A stretch of DNA of 64,000 bases from Escherichia coli (GTDB lineage: Bacteria > Pseudomonadota > Gammaproteobacteria > Enterobacterales > Enterobacteriaceae), in NCBI RefSeq assembly GCF_051903065.1, contig NZ_CP178438.1, one strand, 5' to 3'. The notes beneath the pieces are model-generated. The model had not been told where the DNA came from, ran no database searches, and worked only from the letters and a program-made list of their open reading frames with translations. Made by a program: the position numbers and the translations under genes. Of this stretch, positions 5,795-53,805 are shown piece after piece. Numbering within the stretch: the stretch's first letter is position 1; the number at the start of each line of letters is the position of its first letter.

Positions 5795-7273
5795 ATGTCG
5801 AAGAAATACATCATAGGGATTGATGGCGGAAGTCAGAGCACAAAAGTGGTGATGTACGATCTGGAAGGTAACGTGGTTTGCGAAGGCAAAGGTTTATTGC
5901 AGCCGATGCACACGCCAGATGCCGATACCGCAGAACATCCTGACGACGATTTATGGGCATCATTATGTTTTGCCGGTCACGATTTGATGAGTCAGTTTGC
6001 CGGGAATAAAGAAGATATTGTCGGTATTGGTCTGGGATCCATCCGTTGCTGCCGTGCGTTATTGAAAGCCGATGGCACGCCAGCTGCGCCATTGATTAGC
6101 TGGCAGGATGCACGCGTAACGCGTCCCTACGAACACACTAATCCTGACGTGGCATATGTCACCTCTTTTTCGGGTTATCTAACGCATCGCTTAACCGGCG
6201 AGTTTAAAGACAATATCGCCAACTATTTTGGTCAGTGGCCAGTGGATTATAAGAGCTGGGCATGGAGCGAAGATGCTGCGGTAATGGAGAAGTTTAATAT
6301 CCCTCGTCATATGCTGTTTGATGTGCAAATGCCTGGCACCGTCCTCGGACATATCACACCACAAGCCGCACTGGCGACACATTTCCCGGCAGGGCTGCCG
6401 GTTGTTTGTACCACCAGTGATAAACCGGTAGAAGCTCTGGGAGCCGGATTACTGGATGATGAAACGGCGGTGATTTCTCTTGGCACCTACATCGCGCTGA
6501 TGATGAACGGTAAAGCACTGCCGAAAGATCCGGTGGCGTACTGGCCGATTATGTCTTCTATACCGGAAACATTGCTGTATGAAGGGTACGGTATCCGTAA
6601 AGGCATGTGGACGGTGAGCTGGCTACGCGACATGTTAGGCGAGTCGTTAATTCAGGATGCCAAAGCACAGGATCTTTCACCGGAAGATTTGCTCAACAAA
6701 AAAGCTTCTTGTGTGCCGCCTGGCTGTAATGGTCTGATGACGGTGCTGGACTGGCTGACCAACCCGTGGGAACCCTACAAACGTGGGATTATGATCGGCT
6801 TTGATTCCAGCATGGATTACACATGGATATATCGTTCGATACTGGAAAGCGTGGCGCTGACGCTGAAGAACAATTACGACAATATGTGTAATGAAATGAA
6901 TCACTTTGCAAAGCATGTGATCATTACTGGCGGCGGTTCGAACAGCGATCTATTTATGCAAATTTTTGCCGACGTGTTCAACCTTCCGGCACGCCGTAAC
7001 GCCATTAACGGTTGTGCAAGTCTGGGGGCAGCGATCAATACGGCGGTAGGTCTGGGGCTATACCCGGATTACGCAACGGCTGTCGACAAAATGGTTCGCG
7101 TGAAAGATATCTTTATGCCTGTTGAGAGCAATGCCAAACGCTACGACGCGATGAATAAAGGTATTTTCAAAGCCCTAACCAAACATACTGATGTGATCCT
7201 GAAAAAATCGTATGAAGTGATGCATGGGGAATTGGGGAATGCGGATTCGATCCAGAGCTGGTCGAATGCGTAA
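5795..7273 (+). CDS. ygcE: FGGY-family carbohydrate kinase
   Basis: 492 aa; N-terminal IGIDGGSQSTK actin-fold ATPase motif; RBS aggag upstream. Confidence 0.85.
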   Translation: MSKKYIIGIDGGSQSTKVVMYDLEGNVVCEGKGLLQPMHTPDADTAEHPDDDLWASLCFAGHDLMSQFAGNKEDIVGIGLGSIRCCRALLKADGTPAAPLISWQDARVTRPYEHTNPDVAYVTSFSGYLTHRLTGEFKDNIANYFGQWPVDYKSWAWSEDAAVMEKFNIPRHMLFDVQMPGTVLGHITPQAALATHFPAGLPVVCTTSDKPVEALGAGLLDDETAVISLGTYIALMMNGKALPKDPVAYWPIMSSIPETLLYEGYGIRKGMWTVSWLRDMLGESLIQDAKAQDLSPEDLLNKKASCVPPGCNGLMTVLDWLTNPWEPYKRGIMIGFDSSMDYTWIYRSILESVALTLKNNYDNMCNEMNHFAKHVIITGGGSNSDLFMQIFADVFNLPARRNAINGCASLGAAINTAVGLGLYPDYATAVDKMVRVKDIFMPVESNAKRYDAMNKGIFKALTKHTDVILKKSYEVMHGELGNADSIQSWSNA

Positions 7274-7319
7274 GTGAGGAAGACCGGGCGGGAAACTGCC
7301 CGGCCTGAACATACCTGAA

Positions 7320-7457
7320 TGGTTATCCCCGCTGGCGCGGGGAACATAAGTTCGACAACTTAAAAAATGATAACAAGTCCGGTTTATCCCCGCTGATGCA
7401 GGGAACATAATAAAAACTTTAACTAGTTCGGTTTATCCCTGTTTTTACAAGGAATAT
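7320..7457 (-). CRISPR. Degenerate CRISPR mini-array (3 type I-E-like repeats, 2 spacers)
   Basis: Repeats tggttatccccgctggcgcggggaacat (7320-7347), cggtttatccccgctgatgcagggaacat (7380-7408), cggtttatccctgtttttacaaggaatat (7429-7457); one 32-bp spacer and one 20-bp spacer; same orientation as the main array. Confidence 0.75.
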
Positions 7458-7519
7458 TAACTACACTCGATGTCTTTAGAATAAAAGACAATACGAATCG
7501 CACTTTATCAATTTTCACT

Positions 7520-8576
7520 GGCTTTGTTGAATAAATCGAACTTTTGCTGAGTTGAAGGATCAGATCACGTATCTTCCCGACAACGCAGACCGTTCCGTGG
7601 CAAAGCAAAAGTTCAAAATCACCAACTGGCCCACCTACAATAAAGCCCTCATCAACCGTGGCTCCATAACTTTCTGGCTGGATGATGAAGCTATTCAGGC
7701 CTGGTATGAGTCAGCAACACCTTCTTCACGAGGCAGACCTCAGCGCTATTCTGACCTTGCCATCACGACTGTGCTGGTCATTAAACGCGTATTCAGGCTG
7801 ACCCTGCGCGCTGCGCAGGGCTTTATTGATTCCATTTTTTCTCTGATGAACGTTCCGCTACGCTGCCCGGATTACAGCTGTGTCAGCAGGCGGGCAAAGT
7901 CGGTTAATGTCAGTTTCAAAACGCCCACCCGGGGTGAAATCGCACACCTGGTAATTGATTCCACCGGGCTGAAGGTCTTCGGTGAAGGCGAGTGGAAAGT
8001 CAAAAAGCATGGCCAGGAACGCCGCCGTATCTGGCGTAAGCTGCATCTCGCCGTTGACAGTAAAACACATGAAATCATCTGCGCTGACCTGTCGCTGAAC
8101 AACGTTACGGACTCAGAGGCCTTCCCCGGGTTAATCCGGCAAACCCACCGGAAAATCAGGTCAGCCGCCGCCGATGGCGCTTACGATACCCGGCTATGTC
8201 ACGATGAACTGCGGCGTAAGAAAATCAGCGCGCTTATCCCTCCCCGAAAAGGTGCGGGTTACTGGCCCGGTGAATATGCAGACCGTAACCGTGCAGTGGC
8301 TAATCAGCGAATGACCGGGAGTAATGCGCGGTGGAAATGGACAACAGATTACAACCGTCGCTCGATAGCGGAAACGGCGATGTACCGGGTAAAACAGCTG
8401 TTCGGGGGTTCACTGACACTGCGTGACTACGATGGTCAGGTTGCAGAGGCTATGGCCCTGGTACGAGCGCTGAACAAAATGACGAAAGCAGGTATGCCTG
8501 AAAGCGTGCGTATTGCCTGAAAACACAACCCGCTACGGGGGAGACTTACCCGAAATCTGATTTATTCAACAAAGCC
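7520..8576 (+). mobile_element. IS903-family (IS5 superfamily) insertion sequence, 1057 bp
   Basis: Perfect 18-bp terminal inverted repeats (ggctttgttgaataaatc at 7520; reverse complement ending at 8576); flanked by a 9-bp direct repeat attttcact at 7511-7519 and 8577-8585 (target-site duplication). Confidence 0.92.
7597..8520 (+). CDS. IS903-type DDE transposase
   Basis: Protein ...AKQKFKITNWPTYNKALINRGSITFWLDDEAIQAWYESATPSSRGRPQRYSDLAITTVLVIKR... matches the IS903/IS102 transposase as I recall it; probable GTG start at 7597 (the ORF-track start at 7552 is a TTG extension). Confidence 0.88.
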   Translation: MAKQKFKITNWPTYNKALINRGSITFWLDDEAIQAWYESATPSSRGRPQRYSDLAITTVLVIKRVFRLTLRAAQGFIDSIFSLMNVPLRCPDYSCVSRRAKSVNVSFKTPTRGEIAHLVIDSTGLKVFGEGEWKVKKHGQERRRIWRKLHLAVDSKTHEIICADLSLNNVTDSEAFPGLIRQTHRKIRSAAADGAYDTRLCHDELRRKKISALIPPRKGAGYWPGEYADRNRAVANQRMTGSNARWKWTTDYNRRSIAETAMYRVKQLFGGSLTLRDYDGQVAEAMALVRALNKMTKAGMPESVRIA

Positions 8577-8976
8577 ATTTTCACTTAAAGTATGAACAGG
8601 ATATCTTTATTCATAAGAACTATTCATCAACAGCGTATAGAGGCGGTTATGTAAAACCACTCATTAGCCTCAAAACAAAGACAAATTTCCAGATTTATTA
8701 CTTAATCAATGAATAACAAGCTTAAAAAATACACTGTTATTCTAAAGAAAAAATTAACAGGCATTAATTAATATTAAAAAAATAATATATTAAAATTTCT
8801 TAACGGTTTAAGGATTATACAAATAACACTTTGATTAAATTTGATTTTTTGTATCGATAATTGTGAACTTATCTGGCATGGGGAACTATTTTGAACATGA
8901 GGTGTTACGTGGATATGTTGCTTATTACAAGTACAGCTAATATAAAAACTTGAGAAAGAGATAACGGGTTATATGG

Positions 8977-9554
8977 TGGTTTATCCCCGCTGGCGCGGGG
9001 AACTCGTACTGACGGATAAAAATAATACCTTTTGCGGCGGTTTATCCCCGCTGGCGCGGGGAACTCGTCAACGTTTTTCATGTGGGCATGAGTTGGGGCG
9101 GTTTATCCCCGCTGGCGCGGGGAACTCTATTCGGCCTCGTGCTGGTCGTGACAAAATACCGGTTTATCCCCGCTAGCGCGGGGAACTCTGGCGATATTGC
9201 CTACCGCAACAAAGAAAATACGGTTTATCCCCGCTAGCGCGGGGAACTCATCCACGAATCCAGTGCAAATGAGTTTGTTGGCGGTTTATCCCCGCTAGCG
9301 CGGGGAACTCATTGTGACTACCACCGATAACCCCGCAACCACCGGTTTATCCCCGCTAGCGCGGGGAACTCCTGCATTCGCCTGCGGTTATCAGATCGCT
9401 AAACGGTTTATCCCCGCTAGCGCGGGGAACTCGCTGCCATTACTTCCCGCCAGCGTTGCTCTGGCGGTTTATCCCCGCTAGCGCGGGGAACTCGCAGAGA
9501 ATCGTTCGATTGCCCCTACATCTTCCGGTTTATCCCCGCTGGCGCGGGGAACTC
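8977..9554 (-). CRISPR. CRISPR array, type I-E (E. coli-type) repeats, 10 repeats / 9 spacers
   Basis: 29-bp repeat cggtttatccccgctggcgcggggaactc (reverse complement of GAGTTCCCCGCGCCAGCGGGGATAAACCG) with an exact 61-bp period; nine 32-bp spacers at 9006, 9067, 9128, 9189, 9250, 9311, 9372, 9433, 9494; the first repeat has t instead of c at its first base. Confidence 0.97.
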
Positions 9555-9760
9555 TCTAAACATAACCTATTATTAATTAATGATTTTTTAAGCCAGTCAC
9601 AATCTACCAACTTTACAGTATCACACAAACAACACATCCATTATGTTAAAGAGCGCTTAATCCATTGATTAAAAAGGTAAATATTTAAAATAACTCTATA
9701 CAAACTAAAATCTACCAAACTTTACCGCAATAATTTTCACTCCAACGAAAAATTAACGCC
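9555..9760 (-). promoter_or_regulatory. CRISPR leader (AT-rich, contains the array promoter and integration signals)
   Basis: The sequence abutting repeat 10 (reverse complement ...ATAATAGGTTATGTTTAGA) matches the conserved E. coli leader-repeat junction as I recall it; AT-rich tract; the far boundary is approximate. Confidence 0.7.
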
Positions 9761-9892
9761 ACAGAATTTGTAGAGAATGATAATGATTAGTCCAGGATGG
9801 GCAAAATGGAGGTTTTTCAGAGGCGACAAAGAATATAAATGAGTAGAAGTCTTTACAGGTTCCACCCATTTATAACGCTTATAAAAGTTTAA

Positions 9893-10564
9893 TCAGGCAA
9901 TATTTAGATATTTATGTGTTTGCATCGACAAACGCCAATTACGCGCAATGCAGATTTCAATGCACAATCGTGTGGCATCATCCTTTTGGCTAATCGGCTG
10001 CAGTGCAATGACTCGCGGTTTATCATCGGTCAGCGTTGCCAATAGTTCATCCAGTGCTTCAATATCGCGTACGCGCCCCACTGGATGCTTGATTTCGTTG
10101 GCTCGCTCCAGTGCCTGTGACAACACTTCATAGCCGCCGCGCATGTTCAGCTTTGGCGATACGGTAACCCAGGTATTCGGTGTGCAGCGTACCTCATGAG
10201 TACCACTGGTTTCGATCTGGCAGCTAAAACCGTTCTTTTCGAGCAGATCAGTCAGTGGTAGCAAATCATGAATGCAAGGCTCACCACCCGTAATCACCAC
10301 ATGCCGCGCGGTGTATCCCTGGCGACTAATGACAGCCAACAAGTCTTCACTGCTCGCCGCCCCCCACTTATCACTCTCTTTGGTCTTCGCCAGAATGCTG
10401 AAAAGGGAGACTTCCCGATCCTCAAGCTTTTCCCAGGTGTGTTTGGTGTCGCACCAGGCACAGCCAACCGGGCATCCCTGTAAACGAATAAAAATGGCGG
10501 GGACGCCGGTAAAGTAACCCTCACCTTGCAGGGTCTGGAACATCTCGTTAATCGGGTACTGCAT
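9893..10564 (-). CDS. queE: 7-carboxy-7-deazaguanine synthase (radical SAM)
   Basis: 223 aa, MQYPINEMFQTLQGEGYFTGVPAIFIRLQGCPVGCAWCDTKHTW with the CxxxCxxC radical-SAM cluster motif. Confidence 0.9.
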   Translation of the reverse strand: MQYPINEMFQTLQGEGYFTGVPAIFIRLQGCPVGCAWCDTKHTWEKLEDREVSLFSILAKTKESDKWGAASSEDLLAVISRQGYTARHVVITGGEPCIHDLLPLTDLLEKNGFSCQIETSGTHEVRCTPNTWVTVSPKLNMRGGYEVLSQALERANEIKHPVGRVRDIEALDELLATLTDDKPRVIALQPISQKDDATRLCIEICIARNWRLSMQTHKYLNIA

Positions 10565-10736: not shown

Positions 10737-11339
10737 ATGCTCAGAATATGCATCGTAATTATATTTATTTTCAATTTATCAGGCTGTGGATATAACGATA
10801 TTCAAACCTATGATGAGCAGGTTAACGCCTCCTGGTCTGAGGTATTAAATCAATATCAACGTCGCGCCGATCTTATTCCTAATCTTGTCGCCAGTATTAA
10901 AGGTTATTCCAACCATGAAAAAGACGTTTTGGAAGCCGTAACATTGGCTCGTAGCCAGGCTAATCGCGCCAGCAGCGATCTTCAGCAAGCTCCCGGAGAT
11001 GCACAAAAATTACAAGCCTGGCAACAGGCCCAGGCGCAGGTGACTCGCACTCTCGGTCAGTTAACGATAATTAGTGAGCGTTACCCTGAGTTAAAGGCTC
11101 AAGAGCTCTATCAAAACTTAATGGTACAGCTCGAAGGAAGTGAAAATAGAATTGCCGTTGCGCGAGGAAGATATATTAAAGCCATTGAACAATATAATGT
11201 CACTATCCGCAAATTCCCCGCTGTATTAACCGCAAAGGTCATGGATTACACACCAAAGAAAAATTATTTGCCGGATGATGTCACCGCAGTAAGTAAAGCC
11301 CCAACAATAGATTTTAGCCAGAATGCTAATGCTCATTAA
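10737..11339 (+). CDS. LemA-family lipoprotein
   Basis: 200 aa; N-terminal lipobox (LSGC); LemA-type core (...QRRADLIPNLVASIKGYSNHEKDVLEAVTLAR...); RBS aaaaggga upstream; AT-rich codon usage. Confidence 0.85.
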   Translation: MLRICIVIIFIFNLSGCGYNDIQTYDEQVNASWSEVLNQYQRRADLIPNLVASIKGYSNHEKDVLEAVTLARSQANRASSDLQQAPGDAQKLQAWQQAQAQVTRTLGQLTIISERYPELKAQELYQNLMVQLEGSENRIAVARGRYIKAIEQYNVTIRKFPAVLTAKVMDYTPKKNYLPDDVTAVSKAPTIDFSQNANAH

Positions 11340-11352
11340 GCGGGGAACTTCT

Positions 11353-12246
11353 ATGCGAAATTTTATCTTCCTTATGGCTTTCTTCTGTTCATCTGTGTTT
11401 GCCACACAAATTCCAGTACCTGAATCCCCCAAGTATGTGAATGACTTAACCGGCACATTAACAAACAGCGAAGTAAACACCCTGACCAACCAGATTAAAG
11501 CCCTGACGCAAAAAAACCACGCACAGTTGGTCGTGTTAGTGGTTGATACAACAGGCGATGAAACCATCGAGCAGTACGCAACGCGGGTATTCGATAGCTG
11601 GAAACCGGGTGATAAAGACCGCGATGATGGCGTTCTACTGTTAGTCGCCTGGCAGGATCATACCGTGCGTATTGAAATCGGTTACGGGCTGGAAGGTATT
11701 ATTACGGATGCACAGTCCGGGAAAATTATTCGCAACAGTATTATTCCTGCATTTAAAAAAGGCGACCTGGCTGGCGGTTTACAAAAGGGGATCAGCGATA
11801 TTGAAAGTCGTCTTACGGGGAATAATTTAGCAACGATAACACCGACCGATCACCCTTTGCCCTTTAGCGGTTGGTGGGCATTGTTAGTCTGGGCGATAGT
11901 ACTGACATTTATTTCTGCCAGAGGATATATCAAAACGCTGGGAGTAATTTGCTTCGCAGCTATTGTACTGGCCTTTGTTTTACCTATAGCAGGCTTCAGC
12001 GGAAGCTGGGGAGTACTCGCAACATTACTCTGCTTCGCCACACCGTTCCTGGCTGTCGCCATCGCTTTTACCCCCTTCGGCAAAAAAGTTCGGGATTTGA
12101 TGCGTGATGTCAACCAGCCATCACGCCATACAAGAAGCAATTCTTCCTCCCACTATTCATCATCGTCATCCTCTTCATTCAACAATGACAATTTCAGCGG
12201 TGGTGGCGGTTCATCTGGTGGCGGTGGCGCTTCCGGGCGCTGGTAA
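11353..12246 (+). CDS. TPM-domain (YgcG-like) membrane protein, paralog 1
   Basis: Signal peptide MRNFIFLMAFFCSSVFA, TPM/phosphatase-like domain (...VLVVDTTGDETIEQYATRVFDSWKPGDKDRDDGVLLLVAW...), C-terminal TM helices, Gly/Ser-rich tail ending SGRW. Confidence 0.85.
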   Translation: MRNFIFLMAFFCSSVFATQIPVPESPKYVNDLTGTLTNSEVNTLTNQIKALTQKNHAQLVVLVVDTTGDETIEQYATRVFDSWKPGDKDRDDGVLLLVAWQDHTVRIEIGYGLEGIITDAQSGKIIRNSIIPAFKKGDLAGGLQKGISDIESRLTGNNLATITPTDHPLPFSGWWALLVWAIVLTFISARGYIKTLGVICFAAIVLAFVLPIAGFSGSWGVLATLLCFATPFLAVAIAFTPFGKKVRDLMRDVNQPSRHTRSNSSSHYSSSSSSSFNNDNFSGGGGSSGGGGASGRW

Positions 12247-12260
12247 CAAAAGGAATTGAT

Positions 12261-13409
12261 ATGCGTATTTTTCTCTTACTTCTGATGCTATGCAGTTTTC
12301 AGGTATTCGCTGAACGATTGCCTTCAGTGAATGACTTAACCGGGACATTAACGACAGAAGAACAAAGTGTTTTAAATCAACAATTAAAGACTCTCGAGCA
12401 GCAAAACCACTTCCAGGTGGCCGTGTTAGTTACGCCAACCACAGGGGGCAAAAACATTAAACTTGCAGCCTCGCAGAGCTACGGGTTATATCACTGGAAA
12501 CCCATTGGAGAGAAGCGATACGGCGAAGGTATCTTAATTCTCGTCGTTTGGCCGGAAGGGCTGGCGTCAATGAAGATTGGACATGGACTGGAAGAGATGT
12601 TGCCGCCGGAACAAGCTGCGCAAATTGTTCGTTACCATATGCAGCCAGAATTCGAAAAAAACAATCTCTTTGCTGGATTAACGGGCGGAATTGAAAGCAT
12701 CGCACAGTTTACCCATATCAAAGCGAACCTTAGCCCTTTGGATGCTTTAGCCAATCATCTGTTTGCTAATCCGCAACGTTCGCTGCCATGTCTTGCCTGG
12801 ACACTGCTGATGATCGTTGCCATCGTTGTCCTCTGGCGATTTGCCAGCCGCCCACGGCGTGGCATATGGATGATATCGATGATTACCCCTATGGTCTGGT
12901 TTTTCTCCTTTCAGGACGATGTCATCATTCGGCGGGTATCGGTCGTTTGTTTTAGTTTATTGTTAGCAACAACCTGCAAGCAGCGTCTCGCGGTAGTTTT
13001 TAATATGTGCCGCGTATTTCCTATGATGCTGACCCCAAAAAATAAAAACTCTAAAGTGAAAAAACAAAAGAAGACTCCGCAGGTTCGTGAATCAGGACGA
13101 AATTCATTGTTTGTCGTGATGCTAATAATTATTGTGGGATGGTGCCTGGTGTTCGCCAGTAATAAAAATATTGCATTCATCTCAACAATTATTGGGTTAA
13201 TTGATCATTTTATCGGCCCAATAACCATTGCTGGCATCGTTCTGCTGATCATTGTGGCCAAATTTACTGGCAATCTTAAGCTGGGGTCAGGAGAAAAAAG
13301 CAACAGGAAAACGGGGAATCGTAATGCTCACTCTCGCTCTTCGTCGAGAAATTCTTTCCGCGGTGGTGGCGGTTCTTCAGGAGGCGGCGGTTCATCCGGC
13401 CGTTGGTGA
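12261..13409 (+). CDS. TPM-domain (YgcG-like) membrane protein, divergent paralog 2 with extended membrane region
   Basis: Signal peptide MRIFLLLLMLCSFQVFA, TPM domain, extra hydrophobic and Lys-rich segments, tail ...GGGGSSGGGGSSGRW. Confidence 0.8.
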   Translation: MRIFLLLLMLCSFQVFAERLPSVNDLTGTLTTEEQSVLNQQLKTLEQQNHFQVAVLVTPTTGGKNIKLAASQSYGLYHWKPIGEKRYGEGILILVVWPEGLASMKIGHGLEEMLPPEQAAQIVRYHMQPEFEKNNLFAGLTGGIESIAQFTHIKANLSPLDALANHLFANPQRSLPCLAWTLLMIVAIVVLWRFASRPRRGIWMISMITPMVWFFSFQDDVIIRRVSVVCFSLLLATTCKQRLAVVFNMCRVFPMMLTPKNKNSKVKKQKKTPQVRESGRNSLFVVMLIIIVGWCLVFASNKNIAFISTIIGLIDHFIGPITIAGIVLLIIVAKFTGNLKLGSGEKSNRKTGNRNAHSRSSSRNSFRGGGGSSGGGGSSGRW

Positions 13410-13414
13410 TCGTA

Positions 13415-14308
13415 ATGCGCTTAATCTTTATTCTATTCACTTTGTGGTGCCTTCCTGGGCTTGCCCAGCAAATTGCTGTGCCGGAACTGCGCCAACAGGT
13501 GACCGATATTACTGGTACGTTAAGCACTTCTGAACAACAATCACTGACACAGCAACTGCAGGATATTACACATAAAACACGGGCGCAGGTCGCTGTATTA
13601 GTAGTGCCGTCCACCGGAGACGATTCCATTGAACAATATGCAACACGCGTTTTTGATAGCTGGAAACTGGGAGATAAGCAGAGAAACGATGGTATTTTAC
13701 TTCTGGTTGCCTGGGAGGATCATGCTGTTCGTATTGAGGTTGGCTACGGGCTGGAAGGGATGGTTACCGACCTGCAAGCGGCGAAAATTATCAGGGATAT
13801 ATTGATCCCTGCCTTCAAAAGTGATGACCTGATGGGTGGATTAACACTGGCAAGCGAAAATATCGGCGCGCTTCTGTTGAATGGTGAATTATCGGAAGAC
13901 AAGGGGGATTATTACAGTATCAATCCCCCTATTCCATTATCGCTTGCTGTAATTATATTGCTGGCGGTACTTTCATATTTTATTGTTTTTACCGATCCGT
14001 CGAATTTACCCTGGATCACTCTCACTGGCGCCATTTACGGGATGGTATTCCTCTATGTTGCCGAGCCAGGACCATGGACCAATTTAATCGTTGCCTGCGG
14101 TATGTTAACACCTTTTGCGATCGTGACGCTGGTTATTTTTTGGCTTATCGTTAATAAAAAGCTACGCGCCAAATACAAAAAACTCAGTAAAGAAAGAGCT
14201 TCAAGAAAAGGTTCTTCTTCATCCTCTTCCGGTGGAGGCTCAAGTGGCGGCGGATTTAGCGGCGGGGGCGGTTCTTCTGGCGGTGGCGGCGCGTCCGGTC
14301 GCTGGTAA
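13415..14308 (+). CDS. TPM-domain (YgcG-like) membrane protein, paralog 3 (likely the counterpart of K-12 ygcG)
   Basis: Signal peptide, TPM domain closely similar to paralog 1 (...SIEQYATRVFDSWKLGDKQRNDGILLLVAWEDHAVRIEVGYGLEG...), tail ...GGGGSSGGGGASGRW; start could also be 13403, overlapping the upstream stop. Confidence 0.85.
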   Translation: MRLIFILFTLWCLPGLAQQIAVPELRQQVTDITGTLSTSEQQSLTQQLQDITHKTRAQVAVLVVPSTGDDSIEQYATRVFDSWKLGDKQRNDGILLLVAWEDHAVRIEVGYGLEGMVTDLQAAKIIRDILIPAFKSDDLMGGLTLASENIGALLLNGELSEDKGDYYSINPPIPLSLAVIILLAVLSYFIVFTDPSNLPWITLTGAIYGMVFLYVAEPGPWTNLIVACGMLTPFAIVTLVIFWLIVNKKLRAKYKKLSKERASRKGSSSSSSGGGSSGGGFSGGGGSSGGGGASGRW

Positions 14309-53568: not shown

Positions 53569-53610
53569 AGCACCTCAGAATAAAAAGGGCGAGGTTATCC
53601 CTCACCCTAA

Positions 53611-53718
53611 ACGCATAAATGCCTGATGCGCTACGCTTATCAGGCCTACATAACTCCTGCAATATTTTGGATTTGCATGATTTGTAGGCCGGATAAGGCG
53701 TTCACGCCGCATCCGGCA
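53611..53718. repeat. BIME (pair of inverted REP elements)
   Basis: gcctgatgcgctacgcttatcaggcctac and inverted tgtaggccggataaggcgttcacgccgcatccggca. Confidence 0.8.
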
Positions 53719-53805
53719 TGAACAACGCGCACTTAGTCAATAATCAGGATGTGAGGTTATCCCTCACCCTGTCATATCCGTAAAAACGGCATACAGAATA
53801 TCACA

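Follow-up and report, generated by a model that had tools for sequence, protein, structure and literature searches.

The stretch analysed here, referred to as the window, comprises 64,000 nt of Escherichia coli DNA. Synteny with annotated relatives places ygcE at 5795-7273 on the + strand and queE at 9893-10564 on the - strand, and the region between these two genes corresponds to the CRISPR-II locus, which has been described as two arrays with type-2 repeats, 0.5 kb apart, between ygcE and ygcF/queE (PMC3903273). The window shows both the placement and the spacing of this description, its two arrays lying 502 nt apart once an insertion sequence (IS) and one 9-bp copy of its flanking duplication are subtracted. 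An initial annotation, made from the sequence alone, had reported an IS between two CRISPR arrays, and these can now be named, following the nomenclature of PMC3903273, as the CRISPR2.2 mini-array and the CRISPR2.3 main array. The features of the locus are as follows.

7319-7457, - strand: CRISPR2.2 mini-array, with repeats at 7319-7347 and 7380-7408, one 32-nt spacer, and a degenerate third repeat at 7429-7457 after a 20-nt spacer.
7511-7519, no strand: left 9-bp copy of the target-site duplication, ATTTTCACT, identical to 8577-8585 and present as a single copy in the empty site of three relatives.
7520-8576, + strand: complete IS903B of 1057 bp (IS5 family, IS903 group), 100% identical to many annotated copies.
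7520-7537, + strand: left terminal inverted repeat (IRL), 18 bp, GGCTTTGTTGAATAAATC, a perfect complement of 8559-8576; IS102 of pSC101 has the same repeat.
7597-8520, + strand: intact transposase gene of 307 codons plus stop, starting with GTG, identified by profile match and free of internal stops.
8559-8576, - strand: right terminal inverted repeat (IRR), 18 bp, the reverse complement of IRL.
8577-8585, no strand: right 9-bp copy of the target-site duplication, ATTTTCACT, identical to 7511-7519.
8586-8976, no strand: remainder of the AT-rich inter-array tract that was the insertion target; together with 7458-7519 it measures 453 nt, with 27.6% G+C.
8977-9554, - strand: CRISPR2.3 main array, type I-E, built of ten 29-nt repeats and nine 32-nt spacers.
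9555-9892, - strand: CRISPR2.3 leader, between queE and the first repeat, assigned from repeat orientation, likeness to the CRISPR2.1 leader and PMC3903273.

The orientation of the arrays is central to any reading of the insertion. Repeats of both arrays read GAGTTCCCCGCGCCAGCGGGGATAAACCG on the - strand, and in the CRISPR-I locus of a close relative cas2 is followed by the leader and then by repeats of the same orientation along the cas operon, so that both arrays of the window are transcribed leftwards. The same repeat orientation places the CRISPR2.3 leader at 9555-9892, on the queE side, and leaders have been reported to adjoin CRISPR2.1 and CRISPR2.3 (PMC3903273). The transposase gene, on the + strand, opposes the direction of array transcription. 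On re-measurement the element is separated by 62 nt (7458-7519) from the degenerate third repeat of the mini-array and by 400 nt (8577-8976) from the terminal repeat of the main array (8977-9005), in keeping with the 63 bp and about 400 bp given initially. It interrupts no open reading frame (ORF) and lies beyond the terminator hairpin found 3' of ygcE at about 7283-7305. The mini-array itself is identical in relatives that do not carry the IS.

Several features of the arrays deserve mention in their own right. The third repeat of the mini-array (7429-7457; CGGTTTATCCCTGTTTTTACAAGGAATAT) is strongly degenerate, the spacer before it is only 20 nt long, and this repeat faces the inter-array tract, opposite to the usual pattern in which the trailer-end repeat is the degenerate one. 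In the main array, six consecutive internal repeats (9160-9493) carry CTAGCG for CTGGCG, a single G-to-A change in the repeat stem, with the canonical CTGGCG form found in the three trailer-side repeats and in the leader-proximal repeat. All nine CRISPR2.3 spacers of the window (8977-9554) occur among the 11 of strain ECNB21-M121 (L001 20762-21461), the sixth and tenth being absent from the window, and the array of strain 23CRST027 (L003 8051-8567) has eight spacers, the second being absent as well. Near-identical strains thus show internal spacer loss only, and because new leader-end spacers are seen in none of them, the differences suggest repeat-repeat deletions rather than acquisition.

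The boundaries of the element are sharply defined. It occupies 7520-8576, and its 1057 bp equal the length listed for IS903B, IS903 and IS102 alike (PMC8431375). A 9-bp duplication is listed for IS903 (PMC2577343 Table 1) and 9-bp direct repeats for IS903B (PMC10513040), as found here. The terminal inverted repeat is perfect over exactly 18 bp, complementarity ending at base 19. Eighteen base pairs is the length expected of an IS903 terminal inverted repeat. Each 18-bp arm occurs once in the 64-kb window, by which a composite transposon or a nearby second copy was rejected. With 52.7% G+C the element stands apart from the flanking tract (27.6%); the value for the whole window is 50.7%. The left and right junctions are represented by the 40-mers CACTTTATCAATTTTCACTGGCTTTGTTGAATAAATCGAA and GATTTATTCAACAAAGCCATTTTCACTTAAAGTATGAACA, respectively. 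The length, the perfect 18-bp repeats and the 9-bp direct repeat given by the initial annotation all proved exact on re-inspection, and of the two checks that it had proposed on the integrity of the copy, comparison of the flanking 9-mers returned ATTTTCACT on both sides, and the search for transposase frameshifts relative to IS903 found none, the reading frame running without an internal stop.

The ORF listed by program at 7552-8520 (TTG start, 322 aa) encloses the real gene at 7597-8520, whose GTG start has the same offset as in the RefSeq annotation of strain 102651. Its product is a single full-length IS5-family DDE transposase of 307 aa: it matches NF033579 (IS5-family transposase) along the entire profile (positions 1-289 of 289), scoring 357.6 bits where the cut-off is 140, and contains the Pfam DDE domains PF13737 and PF01609. 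The exact protein is the RefSeq multispecies entry "IS5-like element IS903B family transposase", present on at least 1000 contigs. Judged by its intact ends, intact transposase and recent insertion, this copy is predicted to be capable of transposition.

The initial assignment to the IS903 family was borne out and could be narrowed to IS903B. Over all 1057 nt the element shows 100% identity to many copies, on chromosomes and plasmids, that bear the annotation "IS5-like element IS903B family transposase"; the assignment is thus made by proxy, through RefSeq-named copies and the exact protein name. Relative to IS102 of pSC101, which shares the length and the 18-bp inverted repeats, identity falls to 92.6% (78 substitutions, no gaps), and a plasmid copy annotated "IS903 family" (H121) is about 95.9% identical; these values point to the IS903B isoform and not to IS102, which was rejected on this ground, or to the original IS903, the sister isoform of Tn903, which has the same 1057-bp length (PMC8431375). 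Compared with IS903B as annotated in RefSeq/ISfinder, the window copy shows no detectable difference in length, 18-bp repeats, 9-bp duplication, 307-aa DDE transposase or nucleotide sequence, only the insertion site being new relative to 5,426 complete E. coli genomes, and nothing in the analysis contradicted the identification. The element is common: 1993 of these 5,426 genomes contain a match to it, and it is widespread in plasmids of Klebsiella, Escherichia, Enterobacter, Salmonella and Citrobacter.

The site before insertion can be reconstructed exactly. Removal in silico of the element together with one 9-mer leaves a 775-nt sequence that is matched at 100% in three complete genomes, those of strains ECNB21-M121, 23CRST027 and 23CRST031; since the reconstruction equals the sequence of these genomes without a difference, the duplication is not a chance match. 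This is the comparison with the uninterrupted ygcE-queE region of other E. coli that had been suggested initially. Among 5,426 complete E. coli genomes, no match to the left-junction probe spans the junction, and left-flank matches in thousands of genomes end precisely at 7519. The exact right junction is likewise absent from these genomes; a single genome, that of strain 102651, reaches 80% coverage of the right-junction probe, and it was shown to carry a different insertion, discussed below.

The nearest relative, 23CRST027, differs from the window by one mismatch over the 7519 nt to the left of the element and by one mismatch, outside the array, over 41,289 nt to its right, that is, by two bases across the roughly 48.8 kb that flank the element, which indicates that the insertion is very recent; the segment 29000-53900 is 100% identical to both 23CRST027 and 23CRST031. 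The IS903B insertion is therefore among the very few features that set these near-clonal strains apart. The sister genomes each hold about 12 to 21 places matching IS903B (12 in the chromosome of ECNB21-M121, 20 in 23CRST031), and a 100%-identical copy was shown in two of the three. With so many copies in the sisters, a donor would have been at hand, and the element appears to be active in the lineage. The initial view of a clean, relatively recent transposition is upheld by the intact duplication, the absence of frameshifts, the empty site in relatives and the absence of the junction elsewhere.

Alignment with the relatives also brought out differences elsewhere in the window. Against ECNB21-M121, the segment 9160-28868 shows 67 mismatches and 26 gap openings, and the left 7.5 kb only two mismatches. 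After queE, at 10737-14308, lie a LemA gene and three genes for TPM-domain proteins, where strain 102651 has yqcG, IS1A and ygcG; in RefSeq the second gene of this group is a partial pseudogene in 23CRST027, though its sequence there is essentially as in the window. Two intergenic stretches of about 137 nt, one at 53609-53745 and one at about 25.6 kb (between barA and gudD; L001 37493-37627), are 82% identical in inverted orientation and probably represent a dispersed repeat of the ERIC/IRU or REP type.

Taken together, the evidence gives high confidence in a very recent transposition of a single intact IS903B, whose target was the non-coding, AT-rich DNA separating the CRISPR2.2 remnant from CRISPR2.3. 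No supporting evidence emerged from the analysis for the alternative that the site holds a vertically inherited IS903-like relic, be it old, decayed or inactive, and the 100% identity to many copies, the intact transposase, repeats and duplication, together with the absence of the junction from 5,426 complete genomes, including sisters about two bases apart in 48.8 kb, refute it to the point where its probability is negligible. Misplacement of a repeated IS during assembly is conceivable in a clone with many identical IS903B copies, a situation prone to such errors. Such an error would not, however, leave 9 bp of host sequence perfectly duplicated, with the sequence of the relatives restored exactly once the duplication is collapsed, nor would it be expected to fall at a site that fits the IS903 target motif, so that an artefact is extremely improbable.

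A further possibility is that the insertion affects CRISPR-II function, by splitting a promoter within the tract from CRISPR2.2, by read-through from the transposase gene antisense to the CRISPR2.3 transcript or by breaking an H-NS-silenced domain. Read along the - strand, the tract precedes the mini-array, only 62 nt of it separating the mini-array from the IS, and the tract had been taken initially for a leader-like sequence. In composition this stands, the 27.6% G+C of the tract being comparable to the 30.5% of the CRISPR2.3 leader and AT-rich as a leader should be; in every other respect the leader interpretation was rejected. The tract lies at the trailer end of the main array, on the wrong side of CRISPR2.3 for a leader, and is upstream of the degenerate CRISPR2.2 remnant only, whose worst repeat is turned towards it. 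With the CRISPR2.1 leader against the CRISPR2.3 leader as positive control, the CRISPR2.1 leader of a close relative aligned to the queE-side flank with a local score of 29 (shuffled 19.7, sd 3.2; reached by 6 of 200 shuffles). Against the IS-bearing tract, the CRISPR2.3 leader scored 27 (shuffled 23.0, sd 3.0; reached by 28 of 200) and the CRISPR2.1 leader 17 (shuffled 20.0, sd 2.7; reached by 188 of 200), so that neither I-E leader aligns to the tract better than to shuffled sequence. An Rfam search of 6800-10200 gave no match at E-values up to 0.1. Promoter-like sites near the IS were not enriched (6 against 4.7 in shuffled sequence, sd 2.2), and terminator-like site counts near the IS were the same as in shuffled sequence; with both counts at this level, nothing can be built on them.

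From the transposase stop codon at 8520 as far as the array at 8977, the same scans found no terminator-like site on the + strand, which would leave room for weak read-through giving RNA antisense to CRISPR2.3. The window stops short of the cas genes; in a close relative the type I-E cas operon is complete, and the I-E system may consequently work in the clone. Nevertheless, the main array has its promoter, its leader and the end at which spacers are integrated 1 kb from the IS, on its far side, and an element placed 400 bp downstream of the trailer end cannot disturb the main-array promoter or the leader-proximal integration site. IS elements in this locus have, moreover, been reported without apparent impact (PMC3903273). 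The earlier suggestion that the IS may alter array transcription thus finds no support, the leader and promoter being on the queE side, and a functional effect on CRISPR-II appears very unlikely. Judged by its position, the insertion is most likely neutral, since no gene is hit and the element lies beyond the ygcE hairpin, downstream of the CRISPR2.3 trailer end and on the side opposite to the leader and promoter.

The choice of the site is in line with what is known of the element. The IS903 target motif is WTTYA-N9-TRAAW (PMC2577343 Table 1), and the sequence TATCA-ATTTTCACT-TAAAG at the insertion matches 8 of its 10 specified positions; taken as the preference that it is, and not as a strict requirement, the motif fits the site. 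Positions scoring at least 8 of 10 make up 0.57% of the window and 3.4% (15 of 445) of the tract, which is thus about 6-fold enriched for motif-like sites, and this abundance probably favoured the insertion site. H-NS typically binds DNA with so high an A+T content, and the composition of the tract, 27.6% G+C, makes it a plausible H-NS target. In E. coli, IS903 insertions have been reported to favour H-NS-bound DNA, with 19 of 32 in the wild type compared to 11 of 33 without H-NS (PMC11335895).

Strain 102651 (NZ_CP189662.1, Gambia) carries an independent IS903B insertion (L002 2051-3107) at a place corresponding to about 8651 of the window, in the same tract and orientation and 66 bp further to the right. 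This copy differs from that of the window by nine substitutions, is flanked by a different duplication, GCGGTTATG, and occupies a site that matches the motif at 6 of 10 positions only; 39 IS903B places were counted in this genome, where an IS1A also adjoins yqcG. Such a pair of independent insertions, oriented alike and 66 bp apart, is what would be expected if the conserved tract between CRISPR2.2 and CRISPR2.3 were a true H-NS-dependent hotspot of IS903B capture, with insertions that may change CRISPR-II silencing or antisense transcription, and, if true, such effects on the CRISPR-II arrays would concern strains with a complete I-E system. However, this is the only other same-orientation IS903B near the window site among the 5,426 genomes, and the collection holds roughly 4,700 chromosomal IS903B-like places, so that about one additional hit in a tract of 453 nt would be expected by chance. 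The hotspot claim was accordingly dropped, and there is little reason to expect that the tract is one.

The most economical sequence of events begins with a donor, probably drawn from the many identical IS903B elements of the clone. Staggered cutting followed by gap repair is the established mechanism of IS903. If it also applies to the window copy, as its anatomy implies, the DDE transposase would have cut the target with a 9-bp stagger at a site resembling WTTYA-N9-TRAAW, and repair of the gaps would have produced the duplication ATTTTCACT. The target itself may have been selected through the abundance of motif-like sites in the tract and its presumed binding by H-NS.

Sporadic IS insertions in the CRISPR-II locus of E. 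coli and Shigella have already been reported (Almendros et al. 2014, PMC3903273), and the case described here resembles them in affecting the same ygcE-ygcF(queE) region with CRISPR2.2 and CRISPR2.3 and in leaving the flanks without rearrangement. It differs in that the insertions of that paper are mostly from Shigella and IS903B is not named there for the window site, and the insertion in 102651 adds a further E. coli case. At CRISPR-I (cas-E), paired IS186/IS insertions have led to deletion of the cas genes together with the leader and a portion of the array (PMC3903273); the likeness is confined to the presence of an IS at a type I-E CRISPR locus, whereas the window has a single IS, with no second copy and no deletion. 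A single IS could later serve in IS-IS recombination deleting the arrays, as at CRISPR-I, but no such event is visible here. Outside the window, ECNB21-M121 has IS421, an IS4-like element, between cas3 and the hok/sok module of CRISPR-I (L001 2608-3720), so that in this lineage the I-E system, too, has IS elements at its flanks.

Overall, neither the element nor the kind of place in which it has inserted is new. For readers of the locus the analysis brings a practical correction, namely that the main-array leader is to be sought next to queE and not in the inter-array tract, and the insertion could be used, at most, as a clone-specific marker distinguishing this genome from 23CRST027, 23CRST031 and ECNB21-M121. 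The insertion also provides an additional data point on the active transposition of IS903B within the lineage, and on its tendency to enter AT-rich DNA that is probably bound by H-NS.
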